Below, in pieces: positions 55,928 to 63,518 of a stretch of DNA of 64,000 bases. Below the pieces are notes generated by a model. The model was not told the origin of the DNA. It saw only the letters and a program-made list of their open reading frames with translations, and did no database searches. The stretch's first letter is position 1; the number at the start of each line of letters is the position of its first letter. The translations under genes and the position numbers were made by a program. The DNA is from Acidimicrobiia bacterium (GTDB taxonomy: Bacteria > Actinomycetota > Acidimicrobiia > IMCC26256 > JAMXLJ01), in assembly GCA_024281095.1 (NCBI GenBank), contig JAMXLJ010000093.1:14310-78309 (forward strand), in the 5' to 3' direction.

Positions 55928-56027
55928 CTCGGCATTGTGCCCGCCCGGCCGCGAGCCCGACGCCTACGCTGTTCCTACCTGGCGTGATGCACAACATGCC
56001 CGGCCCGGGGGCTCGAAGGAGACAACC

Positions 56028-57110
56028 ATGATCCTGGAGCAGCTCGAGACCTCGGCGGCCGAATTCGAACGGGCGACGGGGTGGGCGTTGAAGCGCGAAG
56101 GCGCATGCAAGGGCACCGTCTGCGTGCCGCTCCCCCCGCGCGTCCACGCGGGCTCGCCCGGTAACGAGCGCGTCGACGTCGAGGCGGTCGCGGGACGCCT
56201 CGGGATGCCACTCGTTCACGACGACGTCGCGGGGGTCTGGGCGCTCGGGCCCGAGAGCGCGATCACGGGTCGCGCGCTCACCACCGCTGCGGCGCCCGAC
56301 CTCGAGCTTCCCGACTTCGACGGTAACCCGTTCCGTCTGTCGAGCCTTCTCGGCCAGAAGGTGTTGCTCGTGTCGTGGGCGTCGTGGTGAGGATGTCGTG
56401 AAGACCTGCCCGGGTGGCAGGCGTTGCGTGAGGAGCTCCATCCGTACGGGCTCGAGATCGTGACCGTCGCGCTCGACACCGCGGGAGGCGATGCCGCGCG
56501 ACCGTTCGTCGAGAAGGCGGCGCCGCGGCACCCGTCCTTGCTCGACCAGGCGCACTCGGTCGACGCGGCATTCGGTGTCGTGAACGTACCGAACGGCGTG
56601 TGGATCGACGAGCACGGGATGATCGTGCGTCCCGCCGAGCCTGCATTCCCCGGCCGAAACCCCGTGACGGCAAAGTTCCGTGAGATGAGTCTCGACGGCC
56701 TCCCCGACGACGTCGCCGACATGCTGCGCGAGGTGAAGAAATTCCGCACCGACCCCGACGGCTACGTGGCAATGGTGCGCGACTGGGTCACGCGTGGCTC
56801 GGAGAGCCCGTACGCGCTCGGTCCCGAAGCGGTGATCGAGCGTTCGCAGCCGCGCTCCCTCGACACGGCGCGCGCCGCGGCCCACTTCGAGCTCGGGCAA
56901 CATTTCCACCGGGGCGGCGACCACGGGCGGGCCGTCGTGCACTGGCGCGAGGCCCATCGCCTCCAACCGGAGAACTGGACCTACAAGCGCCAGGCGTGGA
57001 ACTTCGAGGACCCGGTGCGACAGGGCCCGACCGACGTTTACGACAGCTGCTGGATCGCCGACGTGAAGCGGTTCGGCGCCGAGAACTACTACCCGCCCGT
57101 CGTGCCCTGA
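56028..57110 (+). CDS. Probable selenoprotein: TlpA/ResA-like thioredoxin-fold protein with WASW-U-GC (Sec at codon 121, TGA 56388-56390)
   Basis: AAGGAG RBS. ORFs 55857-56390 and 56424-57110 share one frame and join across a single TGA into APDLELPD..G....LSSLLGQKVLLVSWASW*GCREDLP..., a continuous redoxin domain. Confidence 0.85.
56391..56425 (+). promoter_or_regulatory. Bacterial SECIS-like hairpin
   Basis: CCTGCC(56405-10)-CGGGT-GGCAGG(56416-21); G-containing apical loop about 20 nt after the UGA. Confidence 0.65.
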
Positions 57111-57578
57111 TCAGATCGCGAACCAGCTGCTCTGGAAGCGCCGAGTCGTCCCCCGGAGCGGCACCTCGACGAGGACGCTCACCTGCGCCGGCGCGAGATG
57201 GTCCAGGGAGAAGCCCCCGTAGTCGTCGATGCCGAGCGTCCGCGTCCCGCACTCGGTACGCACGGTCGCCACCGTCGCCGCGACGGGGACGACCCAGCCG
57301 CTCAACCGGCACGTCTGCGACTTCGTGCAGTCGATCTTCACCTCGAGTCGCGCACCGCCGCCACTGAACGCGAGCACGCGAGTGTGCGCGCCGCCTGGGG
57401 GCAACAAGACCTCAGCGTCCAGTACGGAGTCGTACACGAGCTCGAGCAATTCCACGTCCGCGGGCACCCGCATGCTCGCGGCGCGACGGGCGCGGATCTT
57501 GACGACGTCGGGAACGGGCTCACGGGACGCACCCACGTCACGCGGCTCCGCCGCAAGGACTCTGGTTGTCGTCTGCAT
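57111..57578 (-). CDS. Hypothetical actinobacterial beta-rich protein
   Basis: LELVYDS...RVLAF...RLSG...DDYGGF...SSW pattern. Confidence 0.6.
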   Translation of the reverse strand: MQTTTRVLAAEPRDVGASREPVPDVVKIRARRAASMRVPADVELLELVYDSVLDAEVLLPPGGAHTRVLAFSGGGARLEVKIDCTKSQTCRLSGWVVPVAATVATVRTECGTRTLGIDDYGGFSLDHLAPAQVSVLVEVPLRGTTRRFQSSWFAI

Positions 57579-57858: not shown

Positions 57859-59925
57859 ATGACGATGCACCACAGCGCCGGAGGCGGCGGGAACGACACG
57901 TCCGTCGCCTTGGTCCATGTCGGACTCCTCGGCGGGTTCCGCGTCGAGCGCGGCGGCTTGCCCATCTCGGACTTCGCCTGGCAGCGACGGAGCGCCAAGC
58001 GCGTCACGAAGCTCTTGGCCATCCGGCCGGGACACGCGGCGCATCGTGACGAGGTCCTCGAGACGCTGTGGCCCAATGCGGATCTTGCGTCGGCACGCAA
58101 CAGTCTGTCGAAGGCGTTGCACGCGGCGCGATGCGCGATCGAGCCTGAGCGCCTCCCGAGGGAAGGCTCGCCGTACATCCGGGTCAGAGACGACCTCATC
58201 ACGCTCGGAACCGAACACGTCGTGATCGATGCCGACGAGTTCCAGCGTCTGGGCCGGCACGCGTTCCACGTCGCGACGGTGCCCGCCTACGAGGATGCAC
58301 TGGCCGCGTACACGGGCGTGCTCCTCCCCGAGGATCTGTACGAGGACTGGGTGACGGAGCGTCGTGATTCTCTCGCCGAGCTCAACATTCGGTTGCTCAT
58401 CAGCCTGGCCGAGGCGTTGGAGAAGCGCGGGCGGCATCGCGCCGCCGTCGACCGGCTCCGTACCGCCCTCGAACAGGACCCGACGCGCGAGGACGTGCAC
58501 CGCCAGCTCATGCGCCTGTACGGCGCGCTCGGTGCCCGTTGCGTCGCGCTCCGCCAGTTCGAGACCTGTCGTTCCGTGCTACGCGAACGACTCAACGTGG
58601 CGCCGGATCCGCAGACGATCGCCCTGTACGAGCGGCTCTCGGCCAACGCGCTCGAGCAGCCGGTTCCGCCGCGAGAGGTCCTGACCGCGACCGGCGCCTT
58701 CGATGTCGCGCCCGACCTCGACGCGGACCCGACGACCCCGTTCGTCGGCCGGGAATCGGCCCTGGGACTGCTCCAGTCGCTCCTGGCGCGCGCCGGGCAG
58801 GGCACCGGGAGGCTCGTCGTGGTCAGCGGCGAGGCCGGCGCGGGCAAGACGCGCCTCGTCGCGCGGTTCGCCCTCGAAGCACAGCTCGCCGGCGCGTGCG
58901 TGCTCGGCGACGGTCAGAGCACCAACACCTTCCCCTACGGTCCGTTCGCGGCCGCGGTCGAGGGCTACGTCGACGACCGCTCCCGCGCCGAGCGTGAGGA
59001 CCTTGCGGCTCGTTATCCCACGCTCCGGTGGCTGGTGCCGTCGATGCACGGCCCGCGGGTGCAGCACGTCACCGCCGGCGACCGCGACGTCACCCATGCG
59101 CGTCTCGGCACAGACATCGCGCGGTTTCTCGACGATGTCGCGTCCTCGGGGCCGGTCGTCCTGCTGCTCGGCGACCTCGACGACACGCATGCCTCGAATC
59201 TGGCCATGCTCCAATACCTGGCCAACCTCGCTCGCCGTCGCCGCTGGCTGATCATGGGGACGATCCGCGAAGAGTCCCTGGGCGCCGAGAGGCGCGCGGG
59301 TCGGATGTTCACGTCTTTGGAGCGTGAAGGTCTCTGCGTTCCCCTGAAGTTGCGCGGCCTCGAACGTCCGGCCTGCGACGAGCTCGTGCGAACGTTGCTT
59401 CGAGGCTTCGCCGTCAGTGACGGCTTCCTCGATCACGTTGCGTCCTTGACGCTCGGCAACCCCTTCTTCATCGGGGAGCTCGTGCAGGCAATGGCGCAGC
59501 GCGACGACGTGGCGTCCGAGCTCGGATGGGACGATCTCACACCGGCGTCATTCCGATTGCCGGCAACAGTGCGCGGCGTCGTCGAGCGAACGCTCGGGCC
59601 CCTCGGGCGCAACGCCCGACAGGTGCTGGACCTCGTGGCGGTGGCCGGCCCGGGCGTCGGACTGCAGGACCTGCGCAACGCCACGGTGCATCTGCAGCCG
59701 TCGCTCTCGAGCGCCGAGCTGTTCACCGCGCTCGATCATTGCCTACGGAGCGGCGTGCTCTTGGAAGACGACGACTCGTACGCGCTCCGGCATGCACTCG
59801 TCCGGATGCTGCTGCTGGAAGACCTTCCACGGCACCGCCGGATCGAGTTGAGCACTGCACTCGCGCATGCGGACACGACGCCGTGTTCCGACTGCCGATG
59901 GCCCGCGGGGGTAGCCACCGGATGA
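57859..59925 (+). CDS. SARP/BTAD + P-loop ATPase transcriptional regulator
   Basis: GLLGGFRV wHTH, LETLWP, BTAD (LYEDWV..RR, DPTRE.VHRQLMRLY), FVGRE, GEAGAGKT. Confidence 0.87.
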   Translation: MTMHHSAGGGGNDTSVALVHVGLLGGFRVERGGLPISDFAWQRRSAKRVTKLLAIRPGHAAHRDEVLETLWPNADLASARNSLSKALHAARCAIEPERLPREGSPYIRVRDDLITLGTEHVVIDADEFQRLGRHAFHVATVPAYEDALAAYTGVLLPEDLYEDWVTERRDSLAELNIRLLISLAEALEKRGRHRAAVDRLRTALEQDPTREDVHRQLMRLYGALGARCVALRQFETCRSVLRERLNVAPDPQTIALYERLSANALEQPVPPREVLTATGAFDVAPDLDADPTTPFVGRESALGLLQSLLARAGQGTGRLVVVSGEAGAGKTRLVARFALEAQLAGACVLGDGQSTNTFPYGPFAAAVEGYVDDRSRAEREDLAARYPTLRWLVPSMHGPRVQHVTAGDRDVTHARLGTDIARFLDDVASSGPVVLLLGDLDDTHASNLAMLQYLANLARRRRWLIMGTIREESLGAERRAGRMFTSLEREGLCVPLKLRGLERPACDELVRTLLRGFAVSDGFLDHVASLTLGNPFFIGELVQAMAQRDDVASELGWDDLTPASFRLPATVRGVVERTLGPLGRNARQVLDLVAVAGPGVGLQDLRNATVHLQPSLSSAELFTALDHCLRSGVLLEDDDSYALRHALVRMLLLEDLPRHRRIELSTALAHADTTPCSDCRWPAGVATG

Positions 59926-62900
59926 GGCGCGCGCTCCCCGGCGCCGACGACCCCGAGGCCGGCCGTCTCGGCGTCCGCCACGCCGTGTTCGTCATCCTGT
60001 TCCTTGCACCCGGCGGTGCATTCGTCGACACGCGCGCCCTCGGAAGCGCCGGGTCGCTCCTTGCGCACCGGGCGCCGTGGATCCCGGTCGTCTCCGTCGG
60101 TACGTCGCTCTTGTTGGGCGCGGCCGCGTGGACGGCCGTCACATGGCTCCGGGGCACTGCGCTGCTCGCCGGCGCCGGCCCGCGAGCCCCGACCCGTCCG
60201 GTTCGCCTCCAGCTCATCGGTGACGACACGAACGGCGTTGTGCAGGCAACGCTCGTCCTCGTACTCGTGGCCGCGCTCGCCTGGGTGCTCTGGCACGACG
60301 CCGGCCCGTGGCAGTACGCGCTCGCCGTCGTCGCGACGATCGCGCTCGGCACCCTCACATGGCCTCGACGCCCGCCGCTCACCCGATGGGGTACACCGTC
60401 TGCGCCCGCGTCCGGCTTGTGGCGCAAGATTCCGGTCGCGAAGCTCGAGACGATTCGTCTTCTCGTGCTCCTCAACGCGGTGACCGCGCTCGTGCTCCTC
60501 GGTTCTCCGCAGCTCTTCTCGGGACCGTGGGCCGCGTCGACGGTGTTCGTCTACCTGCTCATGTTCGGGGTGAACCTCGCGATCCTCAACTCGTGCCTCT
60601 CCGCCTCGACGGGGAGCACACTCGCGCCGGCGCGCGACTACCTCACCCCCGTCGACGGGGCGACAACTTCACCGGGCGCCCCGTCGAGCCCGAGCGGCAC
60701 CACGCGCTGGGAGCGGATGAAGCTGATTCGGCTGCACACGTTCTCGTCGAAGGCAGCCCCGTCGACGCAGGCCGCGGCGACACAGGCCGCGGCGACGCCG
60801 CGCCCGGCGACGCCACGACCCCGCGGAAAGCTTCGGCGTGTCGCAGCCGCGACCGCGCTCCTCGTCGCCGCCGCGTGGATCGCGGCTGCACACCCGGGGG
60901 CGCTGCTCGTGTTCGGCTTTCTCGCTCTCGGCGTGGCGATCCCCTTCACGACCGACATCGATCGGGAGCAGGCGATCACCATGGTGCTCGCGGCCGGTGT
61001 CGGCGTGGCCACGCTCGACTACGTGGGCTGGCGCATCTCGGTGACGAACTGGCAGGGATGGTGGGTCGCGGCGCCTCTGCTGTGCGCGGAGATCCTCGGT
61101 GCGGTCCACGTCGTCGGGTACCAGTTCACGATCTGGCCTCGACCGTCACCGCTGATCGAGCCGTCCGAAGATCCGAGCCGGTACCCCATCTTCATCTTCG
61201 TCCCGACCCTCAACGAAGGCGCCGCGATCCTCCGGCGCACGTTGGAGGGTTGTCTCGCGGCGCGGGCGAAGTACCTCGAGCAGTATCCGGCCGCGAAAGT
61301 GAGCGTGGTCGTGTGCAACGACGGCCGCGCGGCCGGCGTGCCGGGTTGGGAAGACGTCGACCGGCTCGCGAAGCAGCTCGGTGTCCGGAACGTGACGCGG
61401 CAGAAGAGCGGTGGCGCGAAGGCGGGCAACATCGAGAACGCGCGCCAAGAGGTCGGCGCGACGGGTGACGCGCTCGTCGTCATCTTCGACGCCGATCAGG
61501 TGCCCGAGCCCGAGTTCCTCGTCGAGACGGTTCCGCCGTTCGCCGACCCGACGATCGGCTGGGTACAGACGGGCCAGTACTACGCGAACCTCAAGAACCC
61601 CGTTGCGCGCTGGGCCGACGACCAGCAGTCGATGTTCTACAACCTGCTGTGCCCGGGGAAAGCGGCGCTGAACGCCGCGTTCATCTGCGGCACGAACGTC
61701 GTGATCCGCGCCGCGGCACTCGACGAGATCGGCGGCCTCCCGCAGGATTCGGTGACGGAAGACTTCGCGGCGTCGATCGCGCTGCACCCGAGGTGGCGCA
61801 GCATCTACCTCAGCACCGTTCTCGCCACGGGCCTCGGCCCGCTCGACATCCCGTCGTATCTCAGGCAACAGGGTCGATGGGCGCGTGGGACGCTCGGCGT
61901 GTTCCGCAGCAATTGGCGTGACATCCTGCTGCCGAAGAAGCACGGGCTTCGGCTCGGCCAGCGCGCGCAGTACCTGCTCGCGTGTACGCACTACCTCTGC
62001 GGGCTTCGCGACCTCGTCTACATGATCAGCCCGGTGCTCTTCGTCTTCACCGCCATCCCGGCGGTGCGACGGGCGACGCTCGGCGATTACCTGTGGCACT
62101 TCCTTCCGTACATCGCGCTCGGGATCGCCGGCATGTGGTACTCGGCCCGCCGCGTCACGGGACTGCGCGGGATCATCATCGGCTTCGGCAGCTTTCCGAC
62201 GTTGGTGGGCAGCCTCGTCGCCGTGATCCTCGGCCGGAAGACCGGCTTTGCCGTCACCTCGAAGAAGCGGCAGACCGGGAGCCGACCCGTGCGCTATCTG
62301 TGGGTCTACCTGGCGTTCGTCCCTCTATGTGTCGCGTCGCTCGTCTGGGTGACGCGGGTCCACGGCGCGCAACAGACGTCGCTGTTCATCAGCGTCATGT
62401 GGATCGTCTATTCGCTGGTGCTGCTCTCGAGCTTCCTCGGTCTCGCGTGGGCCGATCTGCGTGGACAGCGCGCCGATGTCGCGTCGCTCGCGACCGCGCG
62501 ACAGGCGTACCCGTCGAAGCTGCTCGACCGCACGAATCCGCTCCTGCCGGTCGCCAGTCTGGGCTTGGCCGCGATGATGGCGACACCGCTTCTCGTGACC
62601 CCCCGGTTGGCATCACTCCCGATGTTCGCTCCGAACGCGTCGCGATTCGTGATCACCCATGATCCGTCCCGCTACGTCGGTGTTTCGCTTCCCGTGCAGC
62701 TGCTCGAGACGGGGCAACGAACGCTGGAACGTGAGGTAGGTCTGCGCTTCGGCGTCGTCGGGCGCACACAGGACATCACCGACCGATTCGACGCCCGTTG
62801 GGCGGACACGCTCGCCGCGCACAACGCGCGCCCGTGGGTCACGCTGGAGTTCGGTGTCTTCGGCCCCGATCACAAGGTTCCGCTCGGCGCGAACCTTCCG

Positions 62901-63518
62901 GCCATCATCAACCATCTGTGGGACGGCGACCTCAGGCGCTGGGCCGCCGAGATCCGCGACTACAGCCACCCCGTGTATCTCACGATCCTGCGGCATGCCG
63001 ACAAGAACTGGTCCCTGTCGTCCGCGGTGGCCAACGGTGGGATCCCGCAGGACGTCGCGAAGGCGTGGACCCACGTGCAGTCGATCTTCCGCGAGGTGGG
63101 GGCGAACAACGTCGCGTGGGTATGGGCACCGGCCGATCCCGTGGACGATCGCCCCTACGCGCCGCCGGCATCGAAGATCGACGCCGTCCTGCAGAGCTTC
63201 ATCAACTATCCGGGCACGACCTGGGGCGATCCCCAGGCTGTGCTCCACAACCTCTCGCAGCGGTACCCGGGCAAGCCGCTGTTCATTGAGGCGAGCGCGG
63301 CCGGCCCGCTGCACGAGAAGGCCGCGTGGTTGGACCGTCTCGGTCGCGCGGTCGCAAACCTACCGACGGCCTACGCCGTGCTGTACCACGAAGGTGGGCC
63401 CGGCCTCACACCCACTTCGGCCGAGGCGAAGACGTGGTCGCTCGCGTCGGACCCCGCCTCCCTCGCGACGATGCAGCGCGTCCTCGCCGAAGTGCGCACA
63501 GAGAGAAGAGTCCCATAG
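59922..63518 (+). CDS. Cellulose-synthase-like GT2 fused to a C-terminal GH26-like domain
   Basis: VPTLNE, CND, AKAGN, FDAD, VQTGQ, CGTN, TED, QQGRW, FAVTSK; many TM helices; C-terminal NNVAWVWAP...YPGKPLFIE. Confidence 0.85.
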   Translation: MRRALPGADDPEAGRLGVRHAVFVILFLAPGGAFVDTRALGSAGSLLAHRAPWIPVVSVGTSLLLGAAAWTAVTWLRGTALLAGAGPRAPTRPVRLQLIGDDTNGVVQATLVLVLVAALAWVLWHDAGPWQYALAVVATIALGTLTWPRRPPLTRWGTPSAPASGLWRKIPVAKLETIRLLVLLNAVTALVLLGSPQLFSGPWAASTVFVYLLMFGVNLAILNSCLSASTGSTLAPARDYLTPVDGATTSPGAPSSPSGTTRWERMKLIRLHTFSSKAAPSTQAAATQAAATPRPATPRPRGKLRRVAAATALLVAAAWIAAAHPGALLVFGFLALGVAIPFTTDIDREQAITMVLAAGVGVATLDYVGWRISVTNWQGWWVAAPLLCAEILGAVHVVGYQFTIWPRPSPLIEPSEDPSRYPIFIFVPTLNEGAAILRRTLEGCLAARAKYLEQYPAAKVSVVVCNDGRAAGVPGWEDVDRLAKQLGVRNVTRQKSGGAKAGNIENARQEVGATGDALVVIFDADQVPEPEFLVETVPPFADPTIGWVQTGQYYANLKNPVARWADDQQSMFYNLLCPGKAALNAAFICGTNVVIRAAALDEIGGLPQDSVTEDFAASIALHPRWRSIYLSTVLATGLGPLDIPSYLRQQGRWARGTLGVFRSNWRDILLPKKHGLRLGQRAQYLLACTHYLCGLRDLVYMISPVLFVFTAIPAVRRATLGDYLWHFLPYIALGIAGMWYSARRVTGLRGIIIGFGSFPTLVGSLVAVILGRKTGFAVTSKKRQTGSRPVRYLWVYLAFVPLCVASLVWVTRVHGAQQTSLFISVMWIVYSLVLLSSFLGLAWADLRGQRADVASLATARQAYPSKLLDRTNPLLPVASLGLAAMMATPLLVTPRLASLPMFAPNASRFVITHDPSRYVGVSLPVQLLETGQRTLEREVGLRFGVVGRTQDITDRFDARWADTLAAHNARPWVTLEFGVFGPDHKVPLGANLPAIINHLWDGDLRRWAAEIRDYSHPVYLTILRHADKNWSLSSAVANGGIPQDVAKAWTHVQSIFREVGANNVAWVWAPADPVDDRPYAPPASKIDAVLQSFINYPGTTWGDPQAVLHNLSQRYPGKPLFIEASAAGPLHEKAAWLDRLGRAVANLPTAYAVLYHEGGPGLTPTSAEAKTWSLASDPASLATMQRVLAEVRTERRVP

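Follow-up and report, generated by a model that had tools for sequence, protein, structure and literature searches.

The window analysed here is the whole stretch of 64,000 nucleotides, read on its forward strand, and at 56028-57110 it carries a frame of 360 codons closed by a stop and interrupted once, at codon 121, by an in-frame TGA. The features used below to describe the predicted product are the following, with coordinates, strand, description and, in parentheses, the evidence for each.

56015-56021, + strand: Shine-Dalgarno-like GAAGGAG, 6 nt upstream of the ATG (sequence reading)
56028-57110, + strand: whole predicted selenoprotein gene, 360 codons and stop, one internal UGA (ORF listing, NF041054 match)
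56028-56285, + strand: N-terminal domain, residues 1-86, family-specific (alignments, profile search, AlphaFold2)
56106-56123, + strand: codons of C27 to C32 (C-K-G-T-V-C), predicted beta-hairpin (invariance, strands E25-28 and E31-33)
56286-56642, + strand: TlpA/ResA-like thioredoxin-fold domain, approximately residues 87-205 (Pfam, Foldseek and PDB profile matches)
56388-56390, + strand: UGA predicted to be read as Sec121 (codon 121, TGA column in relatives, three metagenome assemblies)
56394-56396, + strand: Cys123, partner of Sec121 in U-G-C (invariant; one-residue gap with respect to CxxC proteins)
56405-56421, + strand: SECIS-like hairpin CCUGCC / loop CGGGU / GGCAGG (conservation, frozen synonymous sites, bSECIS criteria)
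56583-56591, + strand: N186-V187-P188 loop of the redoxin domain
56661-57107, + strand: helical C-terminal domain, residues 212-360 (AlphaFold2 helices)
56874-56975, + strand: TPR-like hairpin, approximately residues 283-316 (sub-threshold TPR_2, weak consensus-TPR matches)
57108-57110, + strand: true stop codon, TGA, without a hairpin of the SECIS kind 3' of it (sequence reading)

The neighbours of the gene look unrelated to it, i.e. a polysaccharide deacetylase, a 155-residue ORF and a SARP/BTAD regulator. Searched over its full length with Rfam models at their gathering thresholds, the window gave no match, and ARAGORN detected no tRNA in it. One 240-nt contig of the RNA run X19 covers 56668-56907 with 6 differences; it derives from a relative and leaves the TGA outside, and is at most a faint hint of transcription.

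The in-frame UGA

Both sequence reading and ORF listing place the start codon at the ATG at 56028-56030. Translation with table 11 splits the frame into ORFs of 177 and 228 residues, while translation with TGA as U yields a protein of 360 residues with U at position 121 (W117-A-S-W-U121-G-C123), GGA TGT lying directly 3' of the TGA and the local peptide being W-A-S-W-U-G-C-R-E-D-L-P-G-W-Q. A sequence-only reading of this DNA had taken the two ORFs as a single read-through protein, and this agrees with the match of the full-length translation to the NCBIfam equivalog model NF041054 (WAxxUGC_long), which scores 557.2 bits against a cut-off of 300 and aligns residues 1-358 on profile positions 1-352 of 354. 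The same model, described as 'ResA-like WAxxUGC motif-containing protein', turns out to be the family whose name that reading had half remembered. The W-A-x-x-U-G-C motif is present, the residue before U being Trp in 53 and Tyr in 32 of the 85 forms with Sec among the relatives described below. The gene is an ordinary member of NF041054, with the same motif, length and Sec position, and the model supplies a name only.

The reading had further stated that the second ORF lacks a start of its own. A TTG does exist at 56424, but it is the codon of the conserved Leu133, which in the 85 Sec-form genes is mostly written CTG (41), TTG (21), CTC (8) or TTA (5), and most relatives have no start codon there. 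Between the TGA and this TTG, ahead of any possible restart, the invariant residues G122, C123, P128 and W130 are encoded.

The Sec machinery that had been predicted for this genome was found complete, with selA (475 bits), selB (304), selD (411) and tRNA-Sec (69) all above their cut-offs, selA and selB side by side on contig C112, and a tRNA-SeC with anticodon TCA also reported by ARAGORN. A survey of 41 related genomes gave 13 gene matches above the NF041054 cut-off (12 outright and 1 by summed pieces), and each of them contains a single in-frame TGA. Lowering the limit to 140 bits brings the family genes in these genomes to 32, 26 with the TGA and 6 without. selA was detected in 21 of these genomes, and its distribution follows the two forms exactly, since it is present in all 16 genomes with TGA forms and in none of the 6 with uninterrupted forms, whose completeness is 80-98%. 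Five of the six uninterrupted genes were read at the UGA column and have TGC or TGT there; the sixth, in genome G015, lies outside that reading. In the broader set the codon-121 column holds TGA in 85 distinct relatives and TGC or TGT in 8, and full-length proteins with CGC occur among the protein homologues, so that Cys is aligned to the UGA exactly where it had been anticipated. A sequencing error at this place had been considered as well; contigs of three soil metagenome runs, from three studies, span 56388-56390 and show no difference there. On this comparative evidence the UGA at codon 121 is predicted, firmly, to be recoded as selenocysteine.

The hairpin downstream of the UGA

With a 6-bp stem closing a G-rich loop of 5 nt, the hairpin begins 14 nt downstream of the UGA and is encoded by the codons of D-L-P-G-W-Q-A, in general form L-P-(G/V)-W-Q. 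The stem and the loop had both been described correctly from the sequence, whereas their placement immediately after the UGA had not. In its passages on the bSECIS model, the 2026 review PMC13188914 quotes a loop of 3-9 nt, a stem of 4-16 bp, a G in the first two loop positions, a UGA-to-loop distance of 16-37 nt and a minimum free energy of -7.5 kcal/mol or lower; the present hairpin falls within all of these published ranges, with a 5-nt loop whose second nucleotide is G, a 6-bp stem, a distance of 20 nt separating the UGA and the loop, and -9.3 kcal/mol. This energy corresponds to z = -1.75 for the 17-mer, and longer stretches around it give z-scores of -0.96 (43 nt) and 0.10 (71 nt). Folding energy was accordingly rejected as evidence for the hairpin, as it is not distinctive with respect to shuffled sequences in GC-rich DNA. 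Since stability is unremarkable for the composition, the case for the hairpin rests on its conservation among relatives.

These relatives were obtained by scanning one genome per species, which gave 523, of which the best 80 were kept and combined with the loci of the related genomes into 100 loci. The motif was recovered from 99 of the 100 loci in 101 rows, and one row, a spurious out-of-frame match, was dropped. All five core pairs are formed in 92/92 rows with TGA against 3/8 Cys forms; the relatives are not independent of one another, and the Cys control, at 8 forms, is small. The stem reads CUGCC/GGCAG in 87 of the 92 TGA rows, and the remaining five keep the pairing through G-U (4) or through a double change to CUUCC/GGAAG (1). 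Removal of duplicate rows of one contig reduces the 92 rows to the 85 distinct Sec forms, and the hairpin is conserved in each of them, with a loop of the type C-G-(U/G)-G-U. RNAalifold, applied to 69 nt, returns the 6-bp hairpin only.

The conservation extends to synonymous sites. Leu127 is written CTG in 83/85 Sec forms, compared with 25-47/85 at five other conserved Leu columns, and in the Cys forms the same column shows CTG (4), CTC (2) and once ATC, i.e. Ile. Pro128 is CCC in 78/85 Sec forms, compared with 10-43/85 at five other Pro columns, and CCG in 6/6 Pro codons of the Cys forms. Third codon positions are identical in 76-84 of the 85 genes within the hairpin and in 38-66 just outside it. 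It should be noted that part of the hairpin conservation lies at the protein level, as the L-P-x-W-Q peptide is itself conserved, Cys forms included. The downstream SECIS that had been postulated thus has its counterpart in a SECIS-like hairpin that is conserved in the Sec-form relatives.

Domain architecture and family relationships

The proposal of a protein in three parts, an N-terminal CxxxxC domain, a UxC redoxin domain and a C-terminal tail, agrees with the predicted structure. The full-length AlphaFold2 model, computed with 20 relatives, has a pLDDT of 84.3 and a pTM of 0.78; in it a small N-terminal domain of alpha/beta type precedes the thioredoxin fold, and residues 212-349 are helical.

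In the N-terminal domain, G18, W19, G25, C27 and C32 are invariant in an alignment of 49 sequences, and the two Cys are so in both alignments considered (20/20 and 49/49). Modelled alone by AlphaFold2, the domain reaches a pLDDT of 89.5 and places C27 and C32 on opposite strands of a beta-hairpin. No structure related to it was recovered: the best Z of VIA-align over 48,161 chains was 3.5, with no chain reaching 5, and Foldseek returned nothing from the PDB at E <= 0.001, which does not by itself make the fold a new one. A profile search for the domain yielded 1115 cluster representatives at E <= 0.001 (574 at 1e-10). Within the best 150 of these 1115, 46 end exactly before the Sec position, as calls cut at the UGA do, 9 read through with C or S in the place of Sec, and 95 are fragments or frame-shifted calls; no convincing second architecture was seen among the 19 longer matches in the same best 150. 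The departures seen there, P0076 and P0047 for example, all look like frame-shifted or chimeric metagenome calls.

The central part, residues 87-203, matches Pfam AhpC-TSA (PF00578, 53.5 bits against a threshold of 26) and Redoxin; PF00578 also takes in TlpA-like redoxins. The top Foldseek match is ResA (2h1b_A; E = 1.8e-10, target TM 0.76, rmsd 1.9 over 123 columns), which covers the central domain only, and the ResA matches as a whole share the thioredoxin fold with TM 0.73-0.77 and rmsd around 1.9 over 115-123 columns. With ResA, TlpA and DsbE the domain has in common the W-x-x-W-C...C-(K/R)-x-(E/D)-x-P context and the cis-Pro loop, but where these proteins carry CxxC the motif here is U-G-C, one residue shorter. 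In a profile search of PDB sequences, W-C-G-C-R of the family is aligned with W-C-P-P-C-R of 3kcm through a one-residue gap, from which the active site is read as a CxxC shortened by one residue. The NCBIfam models of ResA, TlpA, StoA and DsbE match this central part only and far below their cut-offs, the equivalog scores being 52.2 against 170 for ResA, 47.4 against 230 for TlpA and 28 against 123 for DsbE.

Concerning the tail, which had been described as TPR-like, the helical domain and one TPR-like hairpin stand, whereas its assignment to TPR is weakly supported: Pfam TPR_2 scores 19.1 bits at residues 283-316, below the cut-off of 27, no tandem TPR was obtained, and designed TPR proteins match the tail in single stretches of 5-11 bits. 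Neither a signal peptide nor a membrane segment was found by Kyte-Doolittle hydropathy and inspection of the N-terminus, with a mean of at most 0.97 over any 19 residues and of -0.36 over the first 30. For lack of a hydrophobic segment or signal-like N-terminus, the protein is probably cytoplasmic, unlike ResA and TlpA. ResA, TlpA and CcmG/DsbE act outside the cytoplasm; the protein described here differs from these extracytoplasmic ones in having no signal peptide or membrane anchor and in its two extra domains, and no cytochrome-maturation genes occur among the neighbours at the window's locus or at the 100 loci.

Thioredoxin-like selenoproteins are also found in eukaryotes, i.e. Sep15 (SELENOF) and SelM, with CxU and CxxU motifs, and the CxU motif of Sep15 probably closes a selenenylsulfide. 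The likeness is one of principle, namely a thioredoxin-like fold in which a single residue separates Sec from Cys and a selenenylsulfide can form; the order of the motif is the reverse of U-x-C, and both the domain context and the Sec insertion system are different.

A FastTree phylogeny of 92 proteins, with the Sec/Cys column masked, resolves two clades, the NF041054 clade with 80 rows (77 Sec, 3 Cys) and a sister clade with 12 (8 Sec, 4 Cys), proportions that describe a sample built on the best 80 of 523 relatives and are not population estimates. Mapped on this tree, the Sec/Cys label changes at least 5 times, 3 of the changes being forced by well-supported branches. The sister clade, which includes a second Sec-containing copy encoded by the same genome (G000:C162), has the same trio of domains, the hairpin and the four Cys/Sec residues C27, C32, U121 and C123, which are invariant across both clades. 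It differs in being 33-37% identical, in scoring 180-240 bits on NF041054, below the cut-off, and in the shorter linker that joins its redoxin domain to the helical one, and no NCBIfam model names it. Carriers, judged from record titles, belong to at least six phyla (Actinomycetota, Chloroflexota, Pseudomonadota, Acidobacteriota, Myxococcota and Binatota), some of the MAG labels looking doubtful; those of the Actinomycetota comprise many Acidimicrobiia, Solirubrobacterales and Frankia tisae, which has two copies of the Cys form. By the same titles the nearest named relatives of the gene are Acidimicrobiia and Actinomycetota MAGs, in agreement with the actinobacterial lineage that had been named from the sequence. 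All-against-all clustering of the 2222 ORFs of the 100 loci gave as the most widely shared neighbour an enoyl-CoA hydratase, present at 10 of the 100 loci, besides lineage-local synteny; the neighbourhood offers no clue to function.

The family is a curated and catalogued one, predicted to consist of selenoproteins. In their passages on it, the selenoproteome catalogues PMC13188914 and PMC2398784 list a UGC-containing family as predicted; the latter (Zhang and Gladyshev 2008) names it 'Prx-like (UGC-containing)', counts 46 selenoprotein sequences and 855 Cys homologues, and describes it as commoner in non-marine samples. Among the Prx-like proteins of the 2005 Sargasso Sea paper (PMC1088965), the corresponding passage notes a single UXC variant, and the main-text passages of Peng et al. 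2016 (PMC5029168) do not mention the family. Within these passages, the catalogue families and NF041054 are equated by motif and domain assignment only. They share the UGC motif, a redoxin domain of AhpC-TSA/TlpA type and many Cys homologues, and the preference of the catalogue family for non-marine samples can be set beside the relatives of the present gene, mostly soil and freshwater MAGs; the N-terminal CxxxxC domain and the helical tail go unmentioned in the catalogue passages on the UGC family. In the literature searched, the string 'WAxxUGC' did not occur in any paper and no tested function was found for any NF041054 member. In public annotation the gene is mostly truncated at the UGA to a 'hypothetical protein' of 116-120 residues, and the full-length Cys forms are named 'peroxiredoxin', 'Thiol:disulfide interchange protein' or 'TlpA disulfide reductase family protein'. 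Both the family and its standing as a selenoprotein family are already on record, and the gene of the window adds no new principle. What the analysis adds is the quantified mini-SECIS, the exact match between Sec form and selA, the shortened motif and the orphan N-terminal domain, and the unnamed sister clade.

Possible chemistry of the U-G-C site

We regard it as very probable, judging from sequence comparison and predicted structure, that the locus is a single gene and encodes a three-domain selenoprotein of NF041054, soluble and probably cytoplasmic, in which Sec121 would be the attacking residue of ResA/TlpA type. UGA-121 would be decoded by SelB and tRNA-Sec with the assistance of the hairpin, and the second TGA, 240 codons on and without such a hairpin, would terminate translation. 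Sec121 would sit in the place of the attacking Cys of the TlpA/ResA CxxC, where helix 1 of the thioredoxin fold begins, and may attack a substrate disulfide or other oxidised sulfur; Cys123 would then resolve the intermediate, giving a strained selenenylsulfide across one glycine. More speculatively, the invariant C27-x4-C32 hairpin could be the internal redox partner of the U-G-C site, and the helical TPR-like tail could hold a protein substrate. A relay between the two Cys/Sec pairs would find an analogy in DsbD, where two soluble domains exchange electrons. A tentative extension, which we consider rather unlikely, is that C27-x4-C32 docks on U-G-C and that the four chalcogens form one centre, either a selenenylsulfide/disulfide relay or a metal or metalloid site. 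Whether disulfide reductase, peroxidase or metal-site, the chemistry is what we infer here, as are the roles of C27/C32 and of the tail.

With the same gene and the same recoding, the protein might instead be a peroxidase that works like peroxiredoxins or glutathione peroxidases, a hydroperoxide oxidising Sec121 to the selenenic acid that Cys123 would then resolve. The peroxidatic motif of peroxiredoxins is T/S-x-x-C, and the residue three positions before Sec121 is Ala118 instead of that Thr or Ser. The structural matches point the same way, ResA and TlpA coming at the top throughout, and the second-best NCBIfam matches are ResA, TlpA, StoA and DsbE, with thiol peroxidase far weaker at 23.3 bits. 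AhpC-TSA is nevertheless the top Pfam match (GSHPx appearing sub-threshold), the Cys forms are in part annotated as peroxiredoxins, and the 2008 catalogue, in its passage on the UGC family, calls it 'Prx-like' (PMC2398784). The AhpC-TSA match and the old name make the peroxidase a real rival, though on balance an unlikely one.

It is doubtful, too, that C27, C32, U121 and C123 together serve as ligands of a metal, metalloid or iron-sulfur cluster, which would make the protein a chaperone, sensor or detoxifier rather than an oxidoreductase. The invariance of all four chalcogen residues across both clades would suit such a site, as would the occurrence of the N-terminal domain solely together with the redoxin domain among the matches examined, the confident modelling of the full-length protein as one body (pTM 0.78) and the CxC/UxC motifs that a review table in PMC13188914, in the part concerned, lists for metal transporters. 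Against it, no metal-handling genes recur as neighbours at the 100 loci, and NCBIfam, Pfam, VIA-align and Foldseek turned up no metal-binding family, whether by sequence or by fold. The remaining alternative dispenses with selenocysteine and takes the TGA as a real stop, the locus being a pseudogene, two separate genes or an assembly error. The two ORFs of table 11 and the public gene calls that end at the TGA are what such a locus would give, but this TGA keeps its column in 85 distinct genes spread over at least six phyla, is followed by invariant residues before any possible restart, is replaced by Cys only in genomes where selA was not found, is agreed on by three independent assemblies and lies in a genome that has the Sec machinery. 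The comparative data already contradict this alternative, to which we give practically no credence.

For the preferred reading, an NF041054 selenoprotein of ResA/TlpA type, the UGA-cut gene calls mean that proteome and metabolic inferences for soil Acidimicrobiia, and for other carriers, miss a predicted selenoenzyme. The four-chalcogen centre, if true, would be a cytoplasmic, TlpA-derived selenoenzyme of an undescribed kind, spread over at least six phyla and served by a near-invariant 17-nt mini-SECIS. The family is widespread and often multi-copy, and its Sec/Cys switch tracks selA exactly; hence, it may serve as a clean natural test case for the advantage of Sec over Cys in a redox motif spaced by one residue.

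Motif variation at the Sec position

Position 120, the residue directly before Sec121, is variable within the family, with Tyr replacing Trp in 32 of the 85 Sec forms at this alignment column; the alternation of the two aromatic residues therefore defines the motif as W-A-x-[WY]-U-G-C. Two further departures were found in the full-length relatives P0143 and P0133, one of which shows W-A-S-W-S-E-C, with a Ser at the Sec/Cys position, and the other C-S-C. The Ser-form relative would be left without the attacking residue.

Downstream neighbours and a metatranscriptome match

Downstream of the selenoprotein gene (56028-57110, plus strand), the window presents the following features:

57111-57578, minus strand: convergent ORF of 155 codons
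57859-59925, plus strand: SARP-type regulator with BTAD and AAA_16 domains
59526-63518, plus strand: family-2 glycosyltransferase ORF of 1330 codons

The convergent ORF shows a coding-like GC3 of 0.88 and yields no Pfam match. Its stop codon and that of the selenoprotein gene abut in the palindrome TGATCA (57108-57113). The listed start of the glycosyltransferase ORF overlaps the end of the regulator by about 400 nt, and the true start of this gene is probably located further in.

A 240-nt contig of the soil metatranscriptome library X19 matches window positions 56668-56907 with 6 differences, and probably derives from a close relative. It falls in the 3' half of the gene and stops short of the TGA.

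Copy number, carriers and a sister clade

Family copy number varies widely between genomes. The related genome G026 harbors four Sec copies over the NF041054 cut-off (300 bits) and one sister-clade copy, distributed over contigs C56, C93, C270, C324 and C41. Frankia tisae carries two Cys-form copies spaced by about 1.4 kb (L067:3001-4071 and L067:5438-6574). Some carriers (L046, L063 and L084) bear the label of a Burkholderiales or a Klebsiella pneumoniae MAG, whereas the tree places their copies among Acidimicrobiia or betaproteobacterial sequences; mis-binned contigs may account for the labels.

Outside the window, the genome from which it comes hosts another gene with this architecture:

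G000:C162:36466-37323 (L022:1129-2166), minus strand: paralogue of 346 codons

It shows a single in-frame TGA, within F-A-T-W-U-G-C, and carries the same hairpin. Its NF041054 score, 213.6 bits, lies below the cut-off, and none of the other NCBIfam models claims it. The sister clade containing this paralogue comprises 8 Sec and 4 Cys forms in the tree, and under standard annotation its genes would be left unnamed and split.
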